From an uncultured Candidatus Saccharibacteria bacterium (lineage in GTDB: Bacteria > Patescibacteriota > Minisyncoccia > Minisyncoccales > JANBVM01): a stretch of DNA of 64,000 nucleotides. The stretch lies in assembly GCA_964450805.1 (NCBI GenBank), contig CAYVDD010000001.1, positions 521,288 through 585,287 of the forward strand, read 5' to 3'. The notes below the pieces were generated by a model, which was given only the letters and a program-made list of their open reading frames with translations, made no database searches and had not been told where the DNA came from. The position numbers and the translations under genes were made by a program. Below, piece by piece: positions 3,359 through 58,731 of this stretch (position 1 is its first letter; each line of letters opens with the position of its first letter).

Positions 3359-4204
3359 CTATGGAAGAATAAGAGACACACATTGCACATCTTTTTTAAC
3401 TGTATTAGTAAAATCAGATTCAGTAGCAATAACATATCCTAATCTTTCTCCGCAGCCCCATATACCCGCAAATACATTCCCTTCAGCTAATTCGAGTGTG
3501 CATCCTCCTCCTGTTGGCCCAGATTCACACTCTGTTACGCCTTTCTCACAAGTTATGATTCCAATACAATCATCACCTATATCCATGCCGTAATTACAAT
3601 GTCTTTCACTTGAGGGTTTTGTATAAAAAGCTTTCGCGGATTTAGGTTTAACGCCAATCCCAAAATCGTGACTTTCGTAGCCAGCCTGTAAAATTAAACT
3701 TTCCACTCCTCCTATATCGAGTATATTACCTTTCCAATTAATCTCTTCATAAAATTTAACATATTCGCAAGGCGGCGCGTCAGTAAACTCCCCACCAATT
3801 ACGGGCGGCAAGTTAGATATGCTAAAAGAAACGGGTTGAAAGGTTGTGAGTTCGGGATTGATTGTATTTAGGATAAGCCATGACGATAAAAGCAAAACTA
3901 ACCCCACAATAGCTGAACCTATTTTTTTTCTAGCATTAGTCATTTTCCCCACGTCTCCAGCTGAACCTAAATACTCAAATCCAGCAGAAACTAAAGCAAT
4001 AAATACCGCTAAGCCGCCTAATGCAATTCCCCATTCATAAAGATATTGAATTAGTTGAGGGAGAGTGCTGTTGTTGTTTAAATTAGTACCTCCAGGAGAG
4101 GCTGGCCAGTCAAGTTCTAAGGCAAAACCCGTTGAAATAATCCCAAAGATTCCTAAAAAGATTAATAAAAGCAGAATTTTTTTATTTTTTTTGAAAATTT
4201 CCAT
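3359..4204 (-). CDS. T4SS-pilin-like (TrbC/VirB2-type two-helix) protein with Cys-rich C-terminal domain
   Basis: Signal/TM, then LYEWGIALGGLAVFIALVSAGFEYLGSAGDVGKMTNARKKIGSAIVGLVLLLSSWLILNTI. This matches the helix-GG..S.GD..K...A+-helix pattern of CPR/Gram-positive conjugative-type pilins. The C-terminal 150 aa contain 10 Cys. Confidence 0.6.
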   Translation of the reverse strand: MEIFKKNKKILLLLIFLGIFGIISTGFALELDWPASPGGTNLNNNSTLPQLIQYLYEWGIALGGLAVFIALVSAGFEYLGSAGDVGKMTNARKKIGSAIVGLVLLLSSWLILNTINPELTTFQPVSFSISNLPPVIGGEFTDAPPCEYVKFYEEINWKGNILDIGGVESLILQAGYESHDFGIGVKPKSAKAFYTKPSSERHCNYGMDIGDDCIGIITCEKGVTECESGPTGGGCTLELAEGNVFAGIWGCGERLGYVIATESDFTNTVKKDVQCVSLILP

Positions 4205-27132: not shown

Positions 27133-27804
27133 TTAACTGATAAATGCACCTTTAATAATTGACGGTAATATTTTGGCAGACAAGATGACTGCCAAAGCTA
27201 CAAGAGTCCAAGTGATGATTGATTTCGCCTTGTTTATTTTTACTGCGTCTCCACCCGCAAAAATCATTAAAAGAGCAGCATAGATTATAAGGATTGGAGC
27301 AATGGCAAAACTAGTTATAACAAGAAAGTCAATTACTGCATTTATTGCATCCCAAAGACTGTCCTGATCTAAAGGATTTTTTAGTTTTATAGGGCCCATA
27401 TATCCACTATCGTCAGGCGGAGGAACTGAGGATTGTTTTGTTATAAAGTTTTCACCATCAACAAAATTACTGTCATTTGCCGGATTTTGTGCTTCAGCTT
27501 TAACTCTCCATTCATATTCAGTGTTTCCATTTAAGCCCATTAAAATATAGTTTGTAATGCCAGCAACTCCTATGGGATATTTTGCTGTCCAATAAGTTGA
27601 TTCTGTAGTTTTATATAAAACTTTGAATTGTTTAAGAGTGCCGCCATTTTTATTCCATTCCCATTGAAGAAGGACACTGCCTTCACCAATATCCAGTACT
27701 AAAGGGTCTTTTGGATTTTTTAGTTTTGCCAAGCAAAAATCAGCATTGAAAAATATTAATCCAAGAATAACAGTTAAGAAAATAATAAAAAGTTTTTTCT
27801 TCAT
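27133..27804 (-). CDS. FN3-like ectodomain fused to a T4SS-pilin-like two-helix module
   Basis: Signal peptide, FN3-like LVLDIGEGSVLLQWEW...YEWRVKA. C-terminus AINAVIDFLVITSFAIAPILIIYAALLMIFAGGDAVKINKAKSIITWTLVALAVILSA. Confidence 0.6.
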   Translation of the reverse strand: MKKKLFIIFLTVILGLIFFNADFCLAKLKNPKDPLVLDIGEGSVLLQWEWNKNGGTLKQFKVLYKTTESTYWTAKYPIGVAGITNYILMGLNGNTEYEWRVKAEAQNPANDSNFVDGENFITKQSSVPPPDDSGYMGPIKLKNPLDQDSLWDAINAVIDFLVITSFAIAPILIIYAALLMIFAGGDAVKINKAKSIITWTLVALAVILSAKILPSIIKGAFIS

Positions 27805-49548: not shown

Positions 49549-49956
49549 ATGAAATTAATGAATAAAAAAATTTTAACAATTCTATTATTTTTTTTGTTAG
49601 TCCCTGGTCAGATTTTTGCAATTTGCGAAGGTAATTTGGTTCCTTGTGGTCGCGAGGGAACACCTCCATGTAATCTTTGTCATCTCTTTGAGCTTATTAA
49701 CAATATTCTTTCATTTGTTCTAACTTGTTTGGTTCCTATTGTAGGAGCTATAATGTTGGTCTGGGGAGGATTTACTTTTCTTTCAGCTGGTTCATCTCCA
49801 GGGCAAGTTGAACAGGCTAGAAATATCATTACTGCTGTGGTTATAGGTATTGTTATTATATTTATTGCCTGGGTATTTTTAAATACCTTTTTGAGCAGTA
49901 TTGGTGTGGCTGAATGGACTGGGTTGGAGAGTTGGTGGAAGATTCAGTGTCAATAA
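49549..49956 (+). CDS. small T4SS-pilin-like protein
   Basis: Signal peptide, LVPCGREGTPPCNLCHLFELINNILSFVLTCLVPIVGAIMLVWGGFTFLSAGSSPGQVEQARNIITAVVIGIVIIFIAWVFLNTF. Confidence 0.7.
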   Translation: MKLMNKKILTILLFFLLVPGQIFAICEGNLVPCGREGTPPCNLCHLFELINNILSFVLTCLVPIVGAIMLVWGGFTFLSAGSSPGQVEQARNIITAVVIGIVIIFIAWVFLNTFLSSIGVAEWTGLESWWKIQCQ

Positions 49957-49961
49957 AATAA

Positions 49962-50034
49962 GCCCCTATAGCTCAATTGGCAGAGCAGTTGCCTCTTAAG
50001 CAATTGGTTTCAGGTTCGAATCCTGGTAGGGGCA
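49962..50034 (+). tRNA. tRNA-Lys(CTT)
   Basis: GCCCCTA/TAGGGGC, gttgc-CTCTTAA-gcaat, T-arm tcagg-TTCGAAT-cctgg. Starts 5 nt after the pilin stop. Confidence 0.88.
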
Positions 50035-50075
50035 CTTGTTTCTATTTAGTATTTAATATATTGTAATTTGTATAT

Positions 50076-50150
50076 GGTGGGCGTAGCTCAATTGGTTAGA
50101 GCTTCGGGTTGTGGACCCGAAGGTTGCGGGTTCGAGTCCCGTCGCTCACC
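50076..50150 (+). tRNA. tRNA-His(GTG) with encoded G-1
   Basis: G-1 + GTGGGCG/CGCTCAC + C73, tcggg-TTGTGGA-cccga, T-loop TTCGAGT. Confidence 0.85.
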
Positions 50151-50180
50151 CATCCTTCGCCAAGGCTTCGGATGACAAAG

Positions 50181-50220
50181 CCTGGCAGCCCGAGATTGTT
50201 TCTCGGGTTTTTGGTTGACA
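50181..50220 (+). repeat. junction J0 (right half only)
   Basis: cctggcag + hairpin cccgagattgtttctcggg (50189-50207) + ttttt gg TTGACA. Confidence 0.8.
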
Positions 50221-50282
50221 AATTTAATTTATATGATATAGTTTATATAATAAAAATGCAGTTTAAAAATTTAACGTGAAAA

Positions 50283-50798
50283 ATGAAAGAGAAAGAAAAA
50301 ATTAAGTCTGATAAAAAGCCCGTTGCTCATATGATTCATGGGTTCGTCGGTGCTGGTAAAACTACATTTGCTAAAAAGCTTGAAAAGGAAATAGGTGCTT
50401 TGCGATTTACAAACGATGAGTGGATGATTTCTCTCTACGGGACTAATCCACCCGCTGAAAAGTTTGCCGAGTATTATGAAAGAACTACTAAACTTTTGTT
50501 AGATACCGCTTTTAAATGTCTGAAAGCTGGTGTTGATATTATCCTGGACGCTGGTTTTTGGAGTAGGTCTCAACGAGATGAAATAAGAGCTCGCATCACA
50601 AAAGCAGGGGCAAATTTTCAGCTCTATTACATTAAATGCTCCGATGAAATGATGAAGCAACGAACTTTAAAACGTAGCGATGATTCACCAAAAGATGCTT
50701 TTTATATAAACGAGGCAGCAATTAAAACTTTCAAAAAACGTTTTGAGCCACTATACGATGACGAGGAACATATAGTAATTGAGAACTGTGGAGAATAA
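50283..50798 (+). CDS. P-loop NTPase/kinase (AAA_33 / zeta-toxin-like fold)
   Basis: Walker A HGFVGAGKTTFAKKL, 171 aa. Followed by hairpin aaccacct/aggtggtt + ttttt (50872-50897). Confidence 0.7.
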   Translation: MKEKEKIKSDKKPVAHMIHGFVGAGKTTFAKKLEKEIGALRFTNDEWMISLYGTNPPAEKFAEYYERTTKLLLDTAFKCLKAGVDIILDAGFWSRSQRDEIRARITKAGANFQLYYIKCSDEMMKQRTLKRSDDSPKDAFYINEAAIKTFKKRFEPLYDDEEHIVIENCGE

Positions 50799-50903
50799 CC
50801 TTTTTTATAGTTCCTTGACAATCTTTTATTTTTTCAAACCCATAATAAGCTTATGAACTTGAAAAAGCCCGAAACCACCTAAAACAGGTGGTTTTTGGTT
50901 GGT

Positions 50904-51056
50904 TTAAGTTATAAAACAGCTTCTAAAATCGTCCAATCGGGGGCTACGATTAAATTCCATTATTAACCTAAATTTCTGCCTCAAGCCTTCCATATACTCA
51001 TAATCCTCCAGAACTTTCATGATATTAGTTATAATAATCTCTCGTTCCTGACCTGG
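50904..51056 (-). pseudogene. remnant A of an unknown gene family (C-terminal ~50 codons)
   Basis: The minus strand reads PGQEREIIITNIMKVLEDYEYMEGLRQKFRLIMEFNRSPRLDDFRSCFIT*. It is in the same frame as ORF 51105..51416, separated by its TAG. Confidence 0.55.
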
Positions 51057-51092
51057 TAGGCCCGAGATTATTTCTCGGGTTTTATGGTATAA
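50915..51092 (+). repeat. junction J1 (long form)
   Basis: Core aacagcttctaaaatcgtccaa (50915-36), coding remnant A, cctggtagg, hairpin cccgagattatttctcggg (51061-79), ttttatggtataa. Confidence 0.8.
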
Positions 51093-51104
51093 AAAAAAAG
51101 AGTT

Positions 51105-51416
51105 CTAAGGACTCTCAAACTTTCTTATTAAGATTATTTTATCAATTTTAATTTCCTTATCGTGATATTTTAGTTTGATTGAGTTATCTTTAACTTTTTG
51201 AAGGATTCCTTTTTTTCCCCATTTCATATGCCCAACTGTTCTATTTTTGTAACTTGTAACTACTATCCCTATTTTACTTCCTATTAAACTTAATAGAATT
51301 TTAGTTTTTCTCTTCATTAATTCAGATTCAATTTTAAAAATTTCTTTATTAGATGTTACGATTTCTTTCTCTTTCTCAAAATTCCAGACCTTCGTTACTA
51401 CTTCTTCTTCTTTCAT
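51105..51416 (-). CDS. hypothetical protein (only minus-strand ORF in the array)
   Basis: 103 aa ending at TAG. The frame continues without stops for 66 codons through hairpin J1 into remnant A. Confidence 0.5.
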   Translation of the reverse strand: MKEEEVVTKVWNFEKEKEIVTSNKEIFKIESELMKRKTKILLSLIGSKIGIVVTSYKNRTVGHMKWGKKGILQKVKDNSIKLKYHDKEIKIDKIILIRKFESP

Positions 51417-51475
51417 TAAATCACTTTATTTTAATTTTCTGCATTTACTTCTAATCTATCTTTAATTTTTTGTCA

Positions 51476-51540
51476 AACAGATTCTAATATCGTCCAGTTG
51501 GGAATCCATTTTGAGGCCCGAGCCAAAAGCTCGGGTTTTT
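51476..51540 (+). repeat. junction J2 (short form, variant hairpin)
   Basis: Core aacagattctaatatcgtccag. Hairpin cccgagc caaaa gctcggg (51517-35) has a compensatory A-T to C-G change. Followed by ttttt. Confidence 0.75.
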
Positions 51541-51656
51541 CTGATTTTATCCAATATTATTGATTTTTTATTTTGTTTTATTAAACTTAAAGGAGATTAA
51601 TTAAAAATAAAGAGGTGTAAATTATCGTAAAAACAAAACTCCCAGATTTAGATTAT

Positions 51657-52118
51657 TTGCTTACACGAGAAGAAAAAGACAAATTCGAAGAATATGTAGA
51701 GTCACTAAGCTCAAAGTCAAAAGAAATTCCACCGAGAAAAAAGAAAGATTGGATAGAACAACAGAAAATAGTTTACTTGCAAAATATCGCTCGTCAGAAA
51801 AAGATGATTGTTGATGATTGGAAGTGGTATAGATGTCAGAATTGTGGAACTCTGATTGTACAGGCCGTATTAGTAAGAGATGAAGAATATTTTGAATATG
51901 TACAAAAGGATGAAGATGATTGGGTTTCTCGAGATGTTCTAGTACAGGGCAAAAGAAGAACTTGCTATTGTAGAATTTGTGGTGACATCATAGGGCATGA
52001 TCCTAAACTTCTTCCGTATGAGATATATAGAGAAAAATTACATGCCGAACTTGATAAAAAATACCCAGGATGGAGATTAACCTCCGGAGCCTTGCATAAC
52101 GCAATAAAAGGGCTGTAA
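51657..52118 (+). CDS. hypothetical zinc-ribbon protein
   Basis: CQNCG...CYCRICG Cys pairs. The start is uncertain: TTG at 51657, while the frame opens at 51621 just after an agaggtg RBS. Confidence 0.55.
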   Translation: MLTREEKDKFEEYVESLSSKSKEIPPRKKKDWIEQQKIVYLQNIARQKKMIVDDWKWYRCQNCGTLIVQAVLVRDEEYFEYVQKDEDDWVSRDVLVQGKRRTCYCRICGDIIGHDPKLLPYEIYREKLHAELDKKYPGWRLTSGALHNAIKGL

Positions 52119-52172
52119 TTAAATATACTTTAAAGGGTTAATAACCTTTTTTTTATTAGAAAGTGCACCAAA

Positions 52173-52289
52173 AACAGGTTCTAATAAAGTTCCGTAGATC
52201 ACCCTGGCAAAATTCCTTTTAGGCGATTTTTAGATATTAGTAATGAGTTTTTGGTGTTGAGAGTTTTCTCTCTAGGTTTTTGCTTGACA
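52173..52289 (+). repeat. junction J3 (type-2 middle, variant hairpin)
   Basis: aacaggttctaataaagttccgtagatcaccctggcaa..., hairpin gagag tttt ctctc (52259-72), tttttg c TTGACA. Confidence 0.7.
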
Positions 52290-52353
52290 AAACTATTCAG
52301 ACTTTATAACGTAACAACGAAACTTATTTTTAAAACTAAAGAGGAATGAAAAA

Positions 52354-52746
52354 ATGAAATTGATAGTAATTAAAGAGGAAAAATTTATAGAGGAAGGAAA
52401 CAGCCTTACCATCGAAGATTTAAATGTGGAACTCACCAAAGAAGATGGAATTAAAGAAACGAAGGGTATAGATTTAGAAAACCTAAGTTTACATATAGAA
52501 AATAATCCTGAATTGGGACGTCTCACCTTGGATTTTTTCAGAGAAAAGTATTCAATTTTTAAAATCATAATTTCAAGTGGTGAAATATTCTTTAGCCGGC
52601 TTGTCCAGAGACCAAACCATGACCATGATGACACTCAAGAGGTATATATTGATAAAGAAACAGAATTGAAATGGCTTACTCGTGATTATGAGGGAAAGCG
52701 AAAAAAAGTAAAAATCCCTTTTGGTGATATTATTAAGGAATATTAG
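52354..52746 (+). CDS. hypothetical protein
   Basis: RBS aagagga. 130 aa, no motif recognised. Terminator agacta/tagtct + T-run follows. Confidence 0.6.
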   Translation: MKLIVIKEEKFIEEGNSLTIEDLNVELTKEDGIKETKGIDLENLSLHIENNPELGRLTLDFFREKYSIFKIIISSGEIFFSRLVQRPNHDHDDTQEVYIDKETELKWLTRDYEGKRKKVKIPFGDIIKEY

Positions 52747-52804
52747 ATAATTTTTAAATTCAGAGACTATATTTTTAGTCTTTTTTTTTATCCCAAAGAC
52801 ACTA

Positions 52805-52980
52805 AACAGGCCCTAACATCGTCCAACTGGAGAGGCATTATGATTAAATTCGTTTATTAGGTTAAATTTACGTTTTAACTCCTCTATATACTCATAATCC
52901 TTCAGAACCTTCAAAAGGCTGGTTATAATAATCTCTCGTTCTTGACCACTCGAAAAACCCGAGATTGTTTCTCGGGTTTT
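52805..52980 (+). repeat. junction J4 (long form)
   Basis: Core aacaggccctaacatcgtccaa, remnant B, hairpin cccgagattgtttctcggg (52958-76), tttt. Confidence 0.8.
52813..52950 (-). pseudogene. remnant B of the same gene family
   Basis: SGQEREIIITSLLKVLKDYEYIEELKRKFNLINEFNHNASPVGRC*. Confidence 0.55.
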
Positions 52981-53051
52981 GACTTTTTAAAAAGATTATT
53001 TTACTTTTAAATAATCAAAGCATATTTCAAAAACAAAAAAGGGATGATTGG

Positions 53052-53435
53052 ATGTTAAACGTCAATGAATTTTTGAAAGAATTCTTAAAACCAAATGAAT
53101 ATTATACCTTGTATTTTCATCATTATTTAAAAGACAAATGGGAAGATGAAAATACAAGGGCAGCAGGTTTAAAAATAGGCACGAAGGTTGAAGGAATTTT
53201 TAAAAGGGAGATGCTTGAAAAAATAGCAAAGAAGTATAATGTTTCTTTGGAAGAGTGGAATATAAGCAAAAGGGGTAGTGATCCTCCACTCAACTGTTAT
53301 TTTTTTTGTCTTCCTTTATCGGAAGAGGAGGCTGAAGCTAAAGCAGAAAAATCAATAGAAGAAAAAGCGAAGGAACTCATGAAAAATCTCATTGAGTGCA
53401 TGAGAGAATGTCGTGAATTGGACTGTAGAGAATAG
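53052..53435 (+). CDS. hypothetical protein
   Basis: RBS aaaggga. 127 aa, acidic C-terminus. Terminator agcc gaaa ggct + T-run follows. Confidence 0.6.
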   Translation: MLNVNEFLKEFLKPNEYYTLYFHHYLKDKWEDENTRAAGLKIGTKVEGIFKREMLEKIAKKYNVSLEEWNISKRGSDPPLNCYFFCLPLSEEEAEAKAEKSIEEKAKELMKNLIECMRECRELDCRE

Positions 53436-53496
53436 ATATTAGCAATATAGTTATTAAAAAAGCCGAAAGGCTCTTTTTTTTATCCCAAAATTCAAA

Positions 53497-53607
53497 TCAA
53501 ATAACTCCTAACAATAAGTTAAATTTTTGTGTCAAACCCTCCATGTATTCATAATCCTCCAGAACCTTCAGAATATCAGTTATAATAATTTCTCGTCGTT
53601 GACCCTG
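53497..53607 (-). pseudogene. remnant C of the same gene family
   Basis: QGQRREIIITDILKVLEDYEYMEGLTQKFNLLLGVI*. Confidence 0.5.
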
Positions 53608-53612
53608 TATAA
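53497..53612 (+). repeat. junction J5 (degenerate: remnant only, no consensus hairpin)
   Basis: Aligns to J1/J4/J6 across ...ccatgtattcataatcctccagaaccttcagaatatcagttataataatttctcgtcgttgaccctg. Confidence 0.6.
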
Positions 53613-53765
53613 TTTTATTATAAATTGTATTAGCCTCTTAGCTTAGACAAAAATCACTTCTTGGGGAGATAGTTTTTGGTTGGATTGACAAGAAAGATAA
53701 AAATGTGGAATATAGAAATGGTTTCATTAACATTTTATTTAAAATATTCAAAAGGAGTGAAAAAA

Positions 53766-54224
53766 ATGTCCGAATCTAAATGTTTAGAAAGATTTTTCGC
53801 CGTAACAAAAAATTCACTTTACAAGGTAGTTGTTTTTGGCGAAGAAGATGTTCCGTATGCAGAAAAGGTAGCCGGTGAGGGCACTATCAAGATAGGAGAT
53901 AAAATAAAGGGCTCAATGCTCGCTGTAGCCAAATGGCTACAGTTTTATGTGCCAGAAAAGTACGGTATGGCTTCTCCATTAGTGGGCACAGAACGTAGGT
54001 TGGAATATGTGAACACGAGGTTTTGGCAAGGCAAAACATCGTTAATTGTGGCCTTATTTATGAGTGAAGAAGAGGCTATGTTTTGTTTTGGGCAAAAACA
54101 ATTAGAAGCATGTGACAAGCGGTGGATTGAACAAACCAAGGAAGTTATTGGTAAGGTTCATGAGAATCACCCGAACCTTACGGTTTGCAAGTGGCACGAG
54201 CTGAGTTTAATTCCTGTTTCATGA
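53766..54224 (+). CDS. hypothetical protein
   Basis: Track ORF 53676 trimmed to the ATG at 53766, which follows the aaaggag RBS (MSESKCLERFF...). No motif recognised. Confidence 0.6.
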   Translation: MSESKCLERFFAVTKNSLYKVVVFGEEDVPYAEKVAGEGTIKIGDKIKGSMLAVAKWLQFYVPEKYGMASPLVGTERRLEYVNTRFWQGKTSLIVALFMSEEEAMFCFGQKQLEACDKRWIEQTKEVIGKVHENHPNLTVCKWHELSLIPVS

Positions 54225-54326
54225 CCTTTTCTGTGTTTTTGATCAAGCCCTTTTTGATTGAATTGACAAAAGAAAAGTACGAGGTAGATCCTACTATTTT
54301 GGAAACGACCTCTTTTTTTTGTAAAA

Positions 54327-54502
54327 AATGTTCTAACCTCGTTCAACTGGGGCATTATAATTAAATTCGTTTATCAACTTAAATTTTTGCCTTAATCCTT
54401 CCGTATACTCATAATCCTCCAGAACATTCATAATATCAGTTATGATGATCTCTGGTCGCTGACCCTGGAAGAATAGCTTAACAAGCGGTTTTTTGGTATA
54501 AT
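54327..54502 (+). repeat. junction J6 (long form, weak hairpin)
   Basis: Core aatgttctaacctcgttcaa, remnant D, gaccctgg, gctt aac aagc, ttttttGGTATAAT (-10 at 54497-502). Confidence 0.75.
54333..54473 (-). pseudogene. remnant D of the same gene family
   Basis: FFQGQRPEIIITDIMNVLEDYEYTEGLRQKFKLINEFNYNAPVERG*. This is the only conserved part of track ORF 54333..54791. Confidence 0.55.
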
Positions 54503-54510
54503 AGAATAAT

Positions 54511-54984
54511 ATGGAAACCGAGATACCAATTTTCCCAGCGAAGATAAAAAAAGTAATTTCTTGGATGAAAATAATAGGAGTTATTTTTATTCTAATTGGG
54601 ATAATGCCTATAACACCTATAACAGAGGATATCCTGATAACAGAGGAGATCCTGGGAGCTTTTACTTTTCCCGAAATAAATAATAAGGATCCCGATGAAC
54701 CAGTATTATTTTTAACGATTGGATTATTATTTATTTTTTCTTCTGTATTTTTATTAAAAAAGAAAAGATGGGCGTTTGGATTCTCAATCATTTTACTTAT
54801 TACATCTTTTCTTTTCGTATTAATTAACGCTTTTATTAGCCTTGTCGGTGCTTTTTGGATGAGATTTTGGTCGGGTGAATTTTATCTTATAACTGTTCCA
54901 TTATTTACTTTTGCAATAATTATTTTTATTCCTTTTATTCTATTACTTAGTGACTGCAAGAACTTCTTTAAAATTGCTGAATAA
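54511..54984 (+). CDS. hypothetical multi-pass membrane protein (paralog of 55705..56505)
   Basis: The ATG lies 8 nt after TATAAT with no SD. Four or more TMs. The C-terminus ...KKKRWAFGFSI...CKNFFKIAE* is shared with 55705..56505. Confidence 0.65.
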   Translation: METEIPIFPAKIKKVISWMKIIGVIFILIGIMPITPITEDILITEEILGAFTFPEINNKDPDEPVLFLTIGLLFIFSSVFLLKKKRWAFGFSIILLITSFLFVLINAFISLVGAFWMRFWSGEFYLITVPLFTFAIIIFIPFILLLSDCKNFFKIAE

Positions 54985-55097
54985 AACAGGTTCGAACAAA
55001 GTTCCATAGACCACCTTGGCAATTGACATTCTATTGATTCTTCATTGATTAATACTTTACATTATCCCGAGATTGTTTCTCGGGTTTTTGATATAAT
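54985..55097 (+). repeat. junction J7 (type-2 middle)
   Basis: aacaggttcgaacaaagttccatagaccaccttggcaa..., hairpin cccgagattgtttctcggg (55066-84), tttttgaTATAAT (55092-97). Confidence 0.8.
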
Positions 55098-55105
55098 ATG
55101 AGAAT

Positions 55106-55534
55106 ATGGAAGAAGAAAAAGAAAATAATCTTTTGGTTAAAAAAATTACCAATTGGTTCTTAATTGCATTAATTTTGCTTGGCGTTAGTTTTAATATTTA
55201 TTTTTTATTTAATTGGAGTAAAGGAGCTTTGGCTAATTTATTTTGGTTTGGACTACCTTCGGTTCTTTATCCAGTGGTTATGTATCTTATTGTTAAGTTT
55301 TTTTATTCCTCAAAGATAGAAAAACTTCTTATTAAAGTAGCTGTAGTAATAGCAGTAGTTGGACTGGTACTTTTATTTAAAGGTTTTAAACTTGGGGATT
55401 ACGGCGGAGCTGGCGCTTTTCTTATTTCTTTACCTATTCTTTTGCTTTCAGGCTCCTTAGTTTTTCTTGGAATAATCATTTTTTTAATTAGAAAATTTAT
55501 AACTCTGTTCGTAAAGAAAAAAAATAATTATTAA
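55106..55534 (+). CDS. hypothetical multi-pass membrane protein
   Basis: The ATG lies 8 nt after TATAAT. Four TMs, 142 aa. Confidence 0.65.
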   Translation: MEEEKENNLLVKKITNWFLIALILLGVSFNIYFLFNWSKGALANLFWFGLPSVLYPVVMYLIVKFFYSSKIEKLLIKVAVVIAVVGLVLLFKGFKLGDYGGAGAFLISLPILLLSGSLVFLGIIIFLIRKFITLFVKKKNNY

Positions 55535-55629
55535 AAAGACTTTTTATGTATTGGTGATTTTGCAAATATTTCCTTGCCAATTCTTGGATTAATTTCGGTA
55601 TTTATTATTTATTTGATTTATTCCCAACA

Positions 55630-55696
55630 AACAGGTTCTAAAATCGTCCAAGACCCTGGGATAGCCCGAGATTGTTTCTCGGGTTTTTGGTATAAT
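55630..55696 (+). repeat. junction J8 (minimal form, 67 nt)
   Basis: aacaggttctaaaatcgtccaa gac cctgg gata g cccgagattgtttctcggg tttttgg TATAAT. Confidence 0.85.
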
Positions 55697-55704
55697 GGGG
55701 CAAT

Positions 55705-56505
55705 ATGAATTGGAAACAATTTTTAAAACCAGATATCAAAAAGATAATCGTAACAATTATTCTTATATTGGCGACAAGACCTTTTGCCGAGAGTTATATT
55801 ACAACAATGAGCGTTTATAATCCTTTTATTGTAATTCTGATGTACATTTTATCTTGTTTGGTAATTTCTGTAGGTAATAATCTTAGGAGAATAGGAATGC
55901 TATTATTCATAATTTCCATTATATCAGTATATTATTTGGCTAAAGATAGTATGTTTGGAGGTTGGAGCATTTTTTTCTTTTCAATGCCTCTTTTTGGTAT
56001 TTCCTTGTTAATATTGTTATTGTCCTTTATTTCACAAAAGATTTCAGTTCCCCAAAAGACTTCATTAGAAAAAAAAGAGTTTAACCACCAATATCCTGTA
56101 CTGACAAAAATTGCAGCTTGGTGGTTAATTTTAGTTCCTATATATATTCTGATTCTAAAACCTTTTAAGGCTTTAGAATATATGTTTGTTGCTTTTGGAG
56201 ACTGTATGATTGCACATGAGAATTCAAGTTGCTATATTTTAACTCTCTTAGCTTCTTCTAGTTTCTTTAGCTTCTATTTTATTAATTTTTCTTTAGGAGT
56301 TTTTCTTTTGAAAAGAAGAAAACGAGCTTGGTGGATGAGTATAACTATATTAACCCTTGCACTACTTTCTGATAAGATAATATTCCTAGAAGATCTTTTT
56401 TTTCTATTTTTTCTTTTTCTCTCAGATGTACCTATTTTATTTTTTATAGTGCCTGTATTTCTTCTTTTAGTTGATCGCAAGAACTTCTTTAAAATTGCTG
56501 AATAA
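55705..56505 (+). CDS. hypothetical multi-pass membrane protein (paralog of 54511..54984)
   Basis: The ATG lies 8 nt after TATAAT. About 8 TMs. C-terminus ...LKRRKRAWWMSI...RKNFFKIAE*. Confidence 0.65.
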   Translation: MNWKQFLKPDIKKIIVTIILILATRPFAESYITTMSVYNPFIVILMYILSCLVISVGNNLRRIGMLLFIISIISVYYLAKDSMFGGWSIFFFSMPLFGISLLILLLSFISQKISVPQKTSLEKKEFNHQYPVLTKIAAWWLILVPIYILILKPFKALEYMFVAFGDCMIAHENSSCYILTLLASSSFFSFYFINFSLGVFLLKRRKRAWWMSITILTLALLSDKIIFLEDLFFLFFLFLSDVPILFFIVPVFLLLVDRKNFFKIAE

Positions 56506-56612
56506 AACAGGTTCTAATCCTAGTAGTTGAGTAAAGCTCACTACAGGACTACGTATCGTTCAATTGGAGGCCCTGGCATAACCGAGATTGTCTCTCGGGT
56601 TTTTGGTATAAT
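56506..56612 (+). repeat. junction J9 (core split by an extra ~37-nt hairpin insert)
   Basis: aacaggttctaa | tcctagtagttgagtaaagctcactacaggactacgt | atcgttcaattggaggccctggcata + accgagattgtctctcggg + tttttggTATAAT (56607-12). Confidence 0.75.
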
Positions 56613-56620
56613 AGAATAGC

Positions 56621-57085
56621 ATGCTTAAGAAATTCAACAGAGGAATATATACTCCACTACTAATTGGGATTATTTTAGTTTTAGTTATTTCGGTGAGAGG
56701 TTTTATTTTATGGCAGTATCAAGAGTTGAAAACTTTAGATGAGAAGAAAGAAAAGGCTAAGCTTGTAAGTTTTGAAATTATTCCTTCTTGCGAAAGAGGA
56801 GATTTATGGATTATTTATCCAAAAGGAGCAAAAGCAATAGCTAAGGGAGAAAATTTAAGTAAAGTAGAGTTTTGGATATCTCCTACTGGAACCGGGATGG
56901 AGGATTATTTATTCGAAAAAAACGAATTAATAAGAAAGGGTAATCAATGGGAAATGTTACTTCCAGATATGATGTTTGCAGCTGACTTTTATGCGACTGG
57001 TTATGATTCTGAAGGGAAAGAAGTAGGCAAAATTTCTCTTGGTACTGTGTCTGGTTCCATAGGATACCCTGAAGACTGCGAATAG
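56621..57085 (+). CDS. hypothetical membrane-anchored protein (possibly the N-terminal part of a decayed longer gene)
   Basis: The ATG lies 8 nt after TATAAT. One TM. Ends at TAG 57083-85. Confidence 0.55.
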   Translation: MLKKFNRGIYTPLLIGIILVLVISVRGFILWQYQELKTLDEKKEKAKLVSFEIIPSCERGDLWIIYPKGAKAIAKGENLSKVEFWISPTGTGMEDYLFEKNELIRKGNQWEMLLPDMMFAADFYATGYDSEGKEVGKISLGTVSGSIGYPEDCE

Positions 57086-57536
57086 AACGACTTTGTAGGC
57101 TGGAAGATTTATAAAAACGAGGAGTATGGTTATGAATTTAAGTATCCAACAGGTTTTAACCAGAAATATATAAAAGAACATAACTGGCCCCCAAAAATAA
57201 CAGTCAGACATTTTGATCCTATTTTTTTTTGCGAAGAGCTCGAAAGGGTTAGAACCTCCAATCGGTTACGGTACTCAAAAAGAGATAGTGTTAAATGGTT
57301 CTAAGTACTGCGTCCTTATTGTAAGCGAGGGTGCGGCTGGAACTTCTTATGTAACTTACAATTATGTAACCAAAAAAGATGATAAACATTTAACTCTTGA
57401 GTTTATATTAAGATTTCCTGGCTGTGGTGCACTATCTGGAATTGACAAGATGGAAGAATGTGAAGAAGAGCGTGATAATTTTGATCCAATTAATATAGTT
57501 GACAAAATACTTTCTACTTTTAAGTTTTTAGATTAA
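57086..57536 (+). pseudogene. start-less, frameshifted domain continuing in frame after the TAG at 57083
   Basis: NDFVGWKIYKNEEYGYEFKYP... reads on in the frame of 56621..57085. It then switches frame at or near the T9 run (57225-57233) to ...EGAAGTSYVTYNY...ILSTFKFLD*. No RBS or ATG for either piece. Confidence 0.45.
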
Positions 57537-57612
57537 AATAAGTTCTAAAGTCGTTTGGAATATTGTTTGGCCTGTATTTTGGATTGTTTTTGGTTTAAAG
57601 ATAATAATGAAA
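57537..57612 (+). repeat. junction J10 (decayed terminal copy)
   Basis: aataagttctaaagtcgtttgg ... ggattgtttttggtttaaagataat aligns to the consensus with the hairpin 3' arm deleted. Confidence 0.55.
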
Positions 57613-57705: not shown

Positions 57706-58731
57706 CTATTTTCTTTCTCCCAGCTTTATCCTAATATCTATTTTTTTCCCTTCTCTTAAAATTTTTAAAACTATTTCATCTCCAATGTTTTGTTTCTGCA
57801 GTAAGTCAGCCAAAGGAGCTTCTTCATTAATTTTTTCACCATTACATTCCAAGACAATATCATATTCCTTTAAGCCTGCCTTGTCAGCTGGAGAGCCTTT
57901 AACAATTGCGCTTTCTCCCAGATTTTCCCTGACAATTAAAGCTCCATAGTCAACAGGAAGTTTATTGGCTTCAGCTGCCTGTTTGTTTAGAATAAAATAT
58001 CTTACGCCTAAAAATGGTTTTTTTATTTTTCCAAACTTCATTACCTCTTCTAAATCTTTTCTGGCGTAATTAATTGGAATAGCAAAGCCAATATTTTGAG
58101 CGCCCATAACCATTGCTGTATTGACCCCAATTGCTTTTCCTTCCATATCCACCAAAGGTCCTCCGCTGTTCCCTGGATTAATTGCAGCATCTGTCTGAAT
58201 TAATCCTCTTAAGCTTGTTGTTTTATGATCTGGTCCTGCATAAGCCTTTATTCTTCTGCTTAATCCGGAAATAATTCCTGCTGAGATTGTATCTTCAAAT
58301 TCTCCTAAAGGATTTCCTACTGCTATTACTGTTTCTCCTAAATCAATTTTCGATGAATCACCCATTTCTATGTAGGGCAAGCTATGGTCTTTTATTTTTA
58401 AAATAGCAACATCAATTAACGGATTTTTTGCCAGAACTTTAGCTGGATATTTCTTTGTTGGTTCTACAATTACAGTATAATCAGCTGTTGGATCTCTGAC
58501 TACGTGGTTACAAGTTAAAACATAGCCGTCTTTTGATACAATAAATCCTGAACCTCCTCCGATTTTTGTTTTTTGTTTTTTATTTTTTTCAATCTGGGGA
58601 ACAATGAATTGGCGTCCTCCAAAAGGAAGAAAATAAAAACCTTCAACTTTAGGCAAGTCTTTTGAAACAATAATAGTGATAACAGCTGGATTAACTTTTT
58701 TTGCAATTTCAACGATTGGTGATTTTTCCAT
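57706..58731 (-). CDS. htrA: HtrA/DegP-family serine protease with PDZ domain
   Basis: GSGFIVSKDGYVLTCNHVV, D in DVAILKI, GNSGGPLVD, C-terminal PDZ. Confidence 0.9.
   Translation of the reverse strand: MEKSPIVEIAKKVNPAVITIIVSKDLPKVEGFYFLPFGGRQFIVPQIEKNKKQKTKIGGGSGFIVSKDGYVLTCNHVVRDPTADYTVIVEPTKKYPAKVLAKNPLIDVAILKIKDHSLPYIEMGDSSKIDLGETVIAVGNPLGEFEDTISAGIISGLSRRIKAYAGPDHKTTSLRGLIQTDAAINPGNSGGPLVDMEGKAIGVNTAMVMGAQNIGFAIPINYARKDLEEVMKFGKIKKPFLGVRYFILNKQAAEANKLPVDYGALIVRENLGESAIVKGSPADKAGLKEYDIVLECNGEKINEEAPLADLLQKQNIGDEIVLKILREGKKIDIRIKLGERK

Follow-up and report, generated by a model that had tools for sequence, protein, structure and literature searches.

The 64,000-nucleotide (nt) stretch of DNA analysed here, referred to as the window, comes from an uncultured Candidatus Saccharibacteria bacterium (GCA_964450805.1, contig CAYVDD010000001.1, positions 521,288 to 585,287 of the forward strand) and carries a 7.4-kb island (~50189-57560) of about 12 small single-gene cassettes, flanked on one side by intact tRNA-Lys and tRNA-His genes and on the other by a gene for an HtrA-like protease (Table 1). 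The cassettes are joined by junctions whose core, AAACAGGTTCTAA.ATCGTCCAA, occurs nine times between 50914 and 57548, always on the + strand. Read along that strand, a junction comprises the core, which resembles a tRNA T arm, an optional reading-frame unit in reverse complement, the last bases of tRNA-His, (C/G)ACC, then CTGG and 5-9 nt, a hairpin, and a promoter (TGGTATAAT or TTGACA..TATAAT) ahead of the next open reading frame (ORF). The repeated minus-strand reading-frame unit, which we name X, is the subject of this report: its copies bear a genuine protein-coding substitution signature and have evolved under purifying selection, and they sit inside repeats that are derived from a tRNA gene.

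A repeat search of the window returned one repeat family with four copies of 122 nt (50932-51053, 52826-52947, 53483-53604 and 54343-54464; copies A to D), whose blocks share 70-80% identity with the reference copy. X copies of one array are 70-85% identical to each other, neighbours differing by 15-30%, and ATT ATT ATA is the best-conserved stretch. Frame 0 of the minus strand translates as GQEREIIITNIMKVLEDYEYMEGLRQKFRLIMEFN.., in exact agreement with the translations quoted in the initial annotation of this DNA, and follows the peptide pattern GQxxEIIIT..VLEDYEY..EFN, while the remaining two minus-strand frames contain many stops. A tblastn search with the four peptides recovered the four copies and a short tail at 55625-55651, with no fifth or full-length copy in the window. 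The sole in-frame ATG upstream of copy D is antisense to the membrane-protein gene 54511-54984, and the copy has an apparent start codon solely because a 152-aa (amino acid) minus-strand ORF (54333-54791), which crosses that gene in antisense, ends in it; this ORF is almost certainly an artefact of AT-rich sequence.

Among the window copies, the variable columns at codon positions 1, 2 and 3 number 7, 8 and 19 over 31 codons (binomial p=0.006), in keeping with the initial annotation, which had noticed that the differences fall mainly on third positions. The estimate of non-synonymous to synonymous substitution rates (dN/dS) that it had suggested, carried out by the Nei-Gojobori method, gave 0.09-0.24 for all six window pairs, and this in the coding frame only, as against 0.7-5 in two control frames. 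The analysis was extended to 20 distinct X copies from the window and other loci, representing at least 12 contexts, with parsimony counts on a neighbour-joining tree (related loci carry labels of the form L0nn, the syntenic ones having been recovered via HtrA orthologues). In this wider sample 125 of 249 changes affect the third position (p=3e-8), and 103 synonymous changes stand against 146 non-synonymous ones, compared with roughly 1:4 under neutrality (p=4e-15). Within the first 30 codons, five synonymous changes and one non-synonymous change separate the close pair L008/L014. The 35-codon block stays open in 19 of the 20 copies, and the replacements are conservative (I/L/M/V/F, K/R, D/E/N). 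AlphaFold, given a 13-sequence alignment, models a single helix over residues 3-36 with a mean predicted local distance difference test score (pLDDT) of 87, so that the X peptide is predicted to form one long amphipathic helix; searches of Pfam, PHROGs and PADLOC with the X peptides gave no meaningful match.

The initial annotation had taken these blocks for C-terminal remnants of a larger gene family whose members diverged before they were truncated. On such an account, X copies would be displaced C-terminal fragments of a target gene that carries an attachment site (att) about 40 codons before its stop and receives a replacement 3' end at each insertion, and a sharp shared boundary combined with synonymous-biased divergence is indeed what a fixed crossover inside a functional gene should leave. 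No such gene was found, however, in the collections that we searched. A four-sequence profile had no match in a word-indexed protein collection; one genome per GTDB species yielded as its sole match a Lujinxingia tetratricopeptide repeat protein with a chance NVLEDYEY word; viral contigs, phage records and plasmid records held no match; and metagenomes of the Joint Genome Institute provided five loci, each with a short X block only. An exhaustive hmmsearch of 1.84 billion representative proteins returned five real matches, all ORFs of 40-77 aa, together with two chance repeat proteins, and a second word search, with an enlarged alignment against 5.8e9 sequences, returned nine ORFs of 40-77 aa and no longer protein with the motif. 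The conserved part of these ORFs is always the same 35-40 C-terminal residues, preceded by unrelated N-terminal junk, and the complete syntenic genomes L019 and L020 carry no larger X-bearing gene at the locus.

The boundaries of the copies speak for a short unit as well. Similarity begins at the same GGT codon in all 20 copies, whatever precedes it, be it a hairpin, a promoter, the htrA terminator or unrelated DNA, and a stop codon lies immediately 5' of the GGT in copy L005_2453 and within the head of X in L006. Because the start is shared and the upstream DNA unrelated throughout, the short form is ancestral, and the synonymous-biased divergence consequently took place within the present boundaries rather than in a longer gene before truncation. 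The most concrete case for a longer gene had been copy A, which was proposed to form a family member of about 170 codons together with the cassette ORF 51105-51416. The two are in frame, as stated, across the TAG of that ORF and 17 stop-free codons (19 in the original count), but a terminator hairpin stands between them, and no relative of the ORF was found beside any other X copy or in the related loci; the frame agreement, a one-in-three event, is best taken as chance. Given further that the head of X is itself derived from tRNA sequence, as described below, descent from a larger gene is in our view very unlikely. X is instead a self-contained unit of 35-49 codons. A separate candidate, X as a C-terminal extension of HtrA, was rejected: a terminator and a stop lie in between, the frame relation varies (in frame with htrA in L011, out of frame in L012 and L015), and the X profile search returned 0 of more than 5,000 HtrA homologues.

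The origin of the junctions can be read from the neighbouring tRNA-His gene. Strings resembling GTTCCGTAGATCACCC are found in the two Family-II junctions of the window, neither of which contains X, and in junctions of L019 and L002, and they match the tRNA-His 3' end (GTCCCGTCGCTCACCC) at 14/17, 14/16 and 12/14 positions, a level reached by 0-3 of 500 shuffles. The short X-type junction at 55629 aligns with the Family-II junction at 54983 along its whole length (1 of 1000 shuffles as good). In L016 the true tRNA-His continues with CACCC, TGGTATTTTTAG and the CCCGAG hairpin, which is the block that follows X in the arrays, and in L008 the hairpin and its flank are present twice, at the true tRNA-His and ahead of X. 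The similarity extends into X: when its first ten bases are compared with the tRNA-His acceptor end in reverse complement (GGTGAGCGAC), 6-10 positions agree, or 12/12 in L012 with the preceding TG included, and its first 3-4 codons (GGT CAG CGA CC.) are the antisense of that acceptor end. An X-type junction therefore reproduces the 3' region of tRNA-His (T arm, acceptor end, flank and terminator) with an insert, the X body of ~95 nt, placed between the T-stem part and the acceptor-end part. X was also considered as an antisense copy of the spacer between tRNA-Lys and tRNA-His, a candidate that was rejected as inspection revealed no similarity.

The tail of X, TTGGACGAT.TTAGAA, which reads as the junction core in reverse complement, is kept at the DNA level even between copies whose frames differ, and the short junctions are internal deletions, both as the initial annotation had described: the junction at 55629-55683 retains only CCAGGGTC and the tail, that at 56505-56599 about 7 more nt of the X 3' end, and the junctions of L022 likewise a few extra bases of it. 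The same annotation had suggested an attachment site at the 3' end of a target gene, and here the idea of repeated att insertion beside tRNA-His and tRNA-Lys holds in outline, whereas the target is a tRNA gene and not a protein gene. The junctions are thus tRNA-derived and are probably attachment-site repeats. Integration into tRNA genes leaves displaced tRNA fragments that mark the ends of islands (PMC4383910), and islands of Prochlorococcus contain tandem arrays and integrase-less remnants (bioRxiv 10.1101/2020.12.28.424599). Four copies of the hairpin agree at all 19/19 positions, whereas the adjacent X copies reach 70-85% identity, and such strong conservation hints at a role beyond termination, possibly as a recombination site.

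Several tests addressed the junctions as structured elements. At E<=1 the Rfam matches in the window were confined to the true tRNAs and to chance similarities, single-strand folds of three long junctions gave z-scores of -0.44 to +0.69 over both strands, and RNAalifold placed 0 pairs on 17 X copies; the junction repeats were found to contain no imperfect palindrome or fold of the attC type, nor, by inspection, RYYYAAC/GTTRRRY cores. The junction folds and the alignment fold led us to reject attC or structured-RNA identity for X, and it is most improbable that X is any non-coding element (recombinase arm sites, an attC-like fold, a structured 3' untranslated region or an antisense RNA), since a position that is always intergenic, between cassette terminator and hairpin and antisense to the neighbours, a start codon lacking from most copies and a head and tail kept as DNA would suit such an element, but the excess of third-position and synonymous changes, the conservative replacements and the single stop-free frame are hard to obtain without translation.

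Related loci reveal a hypervariable cassette island at a fixed chromosomal site. The flanks are conserved in the syntenic loci, with IF-2, RbfA and htrA on one side and tRNA-His/Lys, a type IV secretion system (T4SS) pilin, a CCA-adding enzyme and lipid genes on the other, and homologues of the window HtrA place the organism in Candidatus Nealsonbacteria/Paceibacterales. Between these flanks, the complete genomes CP179890.1 and CP179889.1 (L019 and L020; HtrA 89% identical) have four genes and a single X, and there are seven genes without X in four contigs (L022-L025; HtrA 85% identical), compared to 12 genes in the window, and the content is entirely different; by blastn the arrays have only the junction elements in common. 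In every locus X has the opposite orientation to the tRNA and to the majority of cassette genes. It lies directly 3' of the htrA terminator, on the same strand, in L011, L012/L013 and L015, and one cassette away from tRNA-His in L008/L009 and L014. The purest arrangement is that of a 2.2-kb contig (L016, 1-2242), which reads X-gene-X-gene-X-gene-tRNA-His with one X truncated where the contig stops. Other metagenomes supply the closest relatives of the window copies, L002 being 89% identical to copy D, and the X of the closer relative L019 is only 78-82% identical to the window copies; X similarity therefore does not follow host relatedness.

The copies differ in whether they possess a start codon. 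The codon before GGT is ATG in L011, L012/13 and L014, TTG in L008/9 and L017, and CAG in seven copies, and the true tRNA-His genes of the window and of L014 read ..ATGGGTGA.. in antisense. An internal alternative, the ATG at codon 12 as a leaderless start behind the TATAAC in X, was rejected, as only 8 of the 20 copies have ATG at this codon and many have TTA or CTA.

In order to account for a coding signature in units that mostly have no start, we propose, with confidence about evenly divided for and against, that the cassettes are inserted by a recombinase encoded elsewhere, that X is a genuine mini-gene which can be translated only where a flank supplies ATG or TTG, and that the copies in the window are silent. 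The recombinase would insert cassettes at the tRNA 3' end, each insertion bringing or leaving an att repeat with or without X. Translation would require a flank that sets ATG or TTG immediately in front of GGT, an arrangement that occurs in relatives just past the htrA terminator or at the outer edge of an island with one cassette. On this reading, the four copies in the window would be silent, fairly recently arrived, and still bearing the constraint acquired in translatable positions.

A number of observations weigh against this proposal. No tyrosine or serine recombinase and no intI domain was found in the ~40 window ORFs scanned, which include all island ORFs, and the recombination step is one that we infer, neither an excised form nor an empty/occupied pair having been seen. 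The textbook model of tRNA integration expects no insert in either att copy, which leaves the entry and multiplication of X unexplained. Inspection revealed no evident Shine-Dalgarno sequence, and no promoter or suitably spaced -10 box, ahead of any X copy, and the ATG before GGT may be nothing other than the antisense of the tRNA 3' flank (..CACCCAT), which makes it weak evidence for translation. AlphaFold confidence for an isolated helix is likewise no proof of a real protein. Finally, the terminal branches that lead to the start-less window copies carry 17 synonymous against 15 non-synonymous changes (p=3e-5 against neutrality), which fits silent copies only if they arrived recently.

This last result commends the idea that all X copies are expressed mini-proteins with an unconventional start, be it a near-cognate AUU or AUA in the Ile-Ile-Ile codons or one linked to the 5' hairpin, in which case X would belong to the regular equipment of every cassette junction. 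The frame open in 19/20 copies and the best-conserved ATT ATT ATA would also suit it, and since most hairpins beside the window copies lack a T-run on the strand of X, antisense transcripts could pass. Set against this are the lack of a canonical start and of a Shine-Dalgarno sequence, the ATG at codon 12 in only a minority of copies, the stops of L005_2453 and L006 before and inside the head, the visible decay of copy C and L006, and the position of X between two terminators on the cassette strand, and we consider general expression unlikely.

A further possibility dispenses with a site-specific recombinase: the arrays would grow and turn over by homologous recombination and tandem duplication after DNA uptake, with the conserved junction blocks (hairpin with promoter, core and X) as the recombining segments. 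X would be carried along as the longest homologous stretch, its coding-like conservation being kept up by gene conversion from a single functional master. Such turnover would be in line with junction elements being all that otherwise unrelated arrays share, with the hairpin at 19/19 beside X copies that differ by 15-30%, which suggests homogenisation, with cassettes 54511-54984 and 55705-56505 being paralogues inclusive of their 3' junction, and with a window that encodes type IV pilus and T4SS-pilin genes and no integrase nearby. Yet tRNA 3' fragments abutting an intact tRNA are the signature of integrase-mediated insertion, the X copies are not homogenised within the array and interleave with copies of other genomes, and the window holds no start-bearing master copy, so that we judge this explanation rather improbable.

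With a comparably low degree of belief, we can envisage X as a mini-gene that depends on the state of integration and is carried in the arm of an att site. Its coding body would travel with the cassettes and would form a complete ORF only once recombination joins it to a chromosomal tRNA-His 3' flank that gives it ATG or TTG, as at the site just past the htrA terminator. If so, its amphipathic helix of ~40 aa would have a function bound to that site, and might regulate later insertions or excisions or might affect the adjacent PDZ protease. Were this true, antisense tRNA sequence would make up part of a protein-coding element, in a cassette system of the candidate phyla radiation (CPR) that lacks a local integrase.

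The arrangement has partial counterparts among known systems. Like the tRNA-gene islands of tyrosine integrases (Islander, PMC4383910), the X island abuts intact tRNA-His and tRNA-Lys genes and has direct-orientation degenerate tRNA 3' fragments at its junctions and distal end, hypervariable content and conserved flanks, but it has no integrase among the ORFs scanned, its units are single genes of 0.4-1.9 kb, and its repeat runs past the tRNA end into hairpin and promoter and is in many cases interrupted by the ~95-nt coding-like X. The Tycheposon islands of Prochlorococcus (bioRxiv 10.1101/2020.12.28.424599) share the successive integrations at one tRNA that push older elements inward, the partial tRNA copies in between and the integrase-less remnants, whereas here the elements reside in a CPR bacterium, none of them was seen complete with a recombinase, the one-gene cassettes have a standard terminator/promoter block and the mini-ORF has no counterpart there. 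At the insertion loci rlmH/orfX of the staphylococcal cassette chromosome (SCC) and in dusA-specific islands (PMC4482086) diverged coding fragments are also repeated at element junctions, but the X locus has no intact target gene of that kind, the whole frame of 35-49 codons is repeated and the target is a tRNA 3' end. Chromosomal integrons (with attC sites such as the Vibrio cholerae repeats) resemble the island in their single-gene cassettes, mostly of unknown function and almost all in one orientation with occasional inversion, and in family-like repeats of 60-190 nt; the island differs by repeats that lack the attC fold and the RYYYAAC/GTTRRRY cores and are tRNA-derived, by the lack of an intI among the ORFs scanned, and by a promoter for each cassette. 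In archaeal integrases of the Sulfolobus spindle-shaped virus (SSV) type, a tRNA-like attP lies inside the int reading frame, so that, as with X, a tRNA-derived att segment is part of an ORF whose state depends on the recombination neighbour; X, with ~40 codons, has no integrase homology and no N-terminal partner fragment anywhere.

The X system is thus a variant of the tRNA-anchored integrative island, unusual in a terminator/promoter junction block without a local recombinase and in an unannotated family of att-embedded mini-ORFs in CPR bacteria; no published description of such a system in Patescibacteria turned up in a literature search. The locus between tRNA-Lys/His and htrA offers a concrete place to study gene flux in tiny CPR genomes. 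It harbours an unannotated family of ~40 codons that is under protein-level selection in att repeats and mostly has no start codon, which means either that the initiation of small proteins in these organisms is not understood or that recombination acts as a switch on what an att site can encode, and it illustrates that coding fragments can recur at junctions without being remnants of larger genes.

Table 1. Location of X copies, junction elements and bordering genes (window positions)
Feature	Position	Strand	Remarks
X copy A	50904..51053	-	49-codon open frame GQEREIIITNIMKVLEDYEYMEGLRQKFRLIMEFNRSPRLDDFRSCFIT; stop TAA 50904-50906; no in-frame ATG/GTG/TTG from the upstream stop to the GGT head
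X copy B	52813..52947	-	44 codons; stop TAG 52813-52815; no in-frame start upstream
X copy C	53497..53604	-	35 codons; C-terminal end decayed (..NLLLGVI*); without tail/core; no in-frame start upstream
X copy D	54333..54464	-	43 codons; stop TAG 54333-54335; sole in-frame ATG 109 codons upstream
Family-I junction core	50914..50936	+	AAACAG.TTCTAA.ATCGTCCAA; tRNA T-arm-like; reverse complement of X tail
Further Family-I cores	51475-51497, 52804-52826, 54324-54346, 55629-55651		terminal copy 57536-57560
Family-II junction, without X	52171..52210; second copy 54983-55022	+	T-arm-like core, then GTTCCGTAGATCACCC; tRNA-His 3' end 14/17
Short junction	55629..55683	+	core + GACCCTGG + hairpin; X-type with X body deleted
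Composite junction	56505..56599	+	CAGGTTCTAATCCTAGTAG best matches tRNA-Lys 3' end (score 28); then X-deleted remnant (ATCGTTCAATTGGAGGCCCTGG) + hairpin
Hairpin block, first copy	50189..50231	+	CCCGAGATTGTTTCTCGGG, T-run, then promoter; terminator of tRNA-His
Further hairpins	51061-51079, 51517-51535 (variant loop), 52958-52976, 55066-55084, 55665-55683, 56581-56599		
Hairpin-promoter blocks	50189-50231, 51058-51103, 52955-53000, 55063-55108, 55662-55707, 56578-56623		CCCGAG-N7-CTCGGG, T-run, TGGTATAAT
tRNA-Lys(CTT), intact	49962-50035	+	3' part resembled by junction repeats
tRNA-His(GTG), intact	50077-50151	+	3' part resembled by junction repeats; island begins directly after
Cassette ORF, 103 aa	51105..51416	-	weak OB-fold hint; not part of X
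htrA-like S1C protease (Trypsin_2 + PDZ)	57706..58731	-	distal island border

The cassettes themselves look like a mixed accessory or defence-like gene pool. The first one past tRNA-His (50283-50798) encodes an AAA_33/zeta-toxin-like P-loop kinase (Pfam 2.7e-26 and 4.2e-12), for which PADLOC reported a weak VakA-like match, its only match among the cassettes, and cassettes of related islands encode NUDIX, cupin, HD and NYN proteins, a Schlafen-AlbA/ATPase/Fic-like protein and an Mtase-Mrr fusion. The ATG of the ORF that follows a junction promoter lies ~10 nt past the -10 box, which suggests leaderless or near-leaderless mRNAs. The cassette genes 54511-54984 and 55705-56505 encode paralogous multi-pass membrane proteins with a common C-terminus (..KNFFKIAE) and the following core, the segments 54917-54996 and 56438-56517, which hold the paralogue ends with the junction core, being 76% identical over 80 nt; the two genes are evidence that a cassette was duplicated along with its junction. 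At the far end of the array, the final two cassette ORFs (56621-57085 and 57213-57536) match the N- and C-terminal parts of one 203-aa ORF in L002 (2751-3362; tblastx, ..ILSTFKF end), so that either the gene was split or expanded in the window or it was fused in L002.

Most contigs with close HtrA orthologues are only 1-5 kb long, and a 5.9-kb contig of the same strain, with an exact match to the window HtrA (L018), ends inside the island; the locus, rich in repeats and variable between strains, is apparently one at which metagenome assemblies break. At the other border, ARAGORN found no tRNA-His at the syntenic position of L022, where the island adjoins tRNA-Lys. The gene is internally deleted in that contig (15550-15640; also in L023-L025), so that the acceptor 3' end follows straight on from the acceptor 5' strand and D arm (GTGGCTATGGTGTAATGGCAGCAC-TAGCGTTAGCCACC), and some lineages therefore seem able to dispense with the tRNA-His copy at this locus. 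Genes with a T4SS_pilin domain (PF18895) occur in the window at 3359-4204, 27133-27804 and 49549-49956, and the last of these lies directly upstream of tRNA-Lys at the island border, a position that is kept in L019 and L022.

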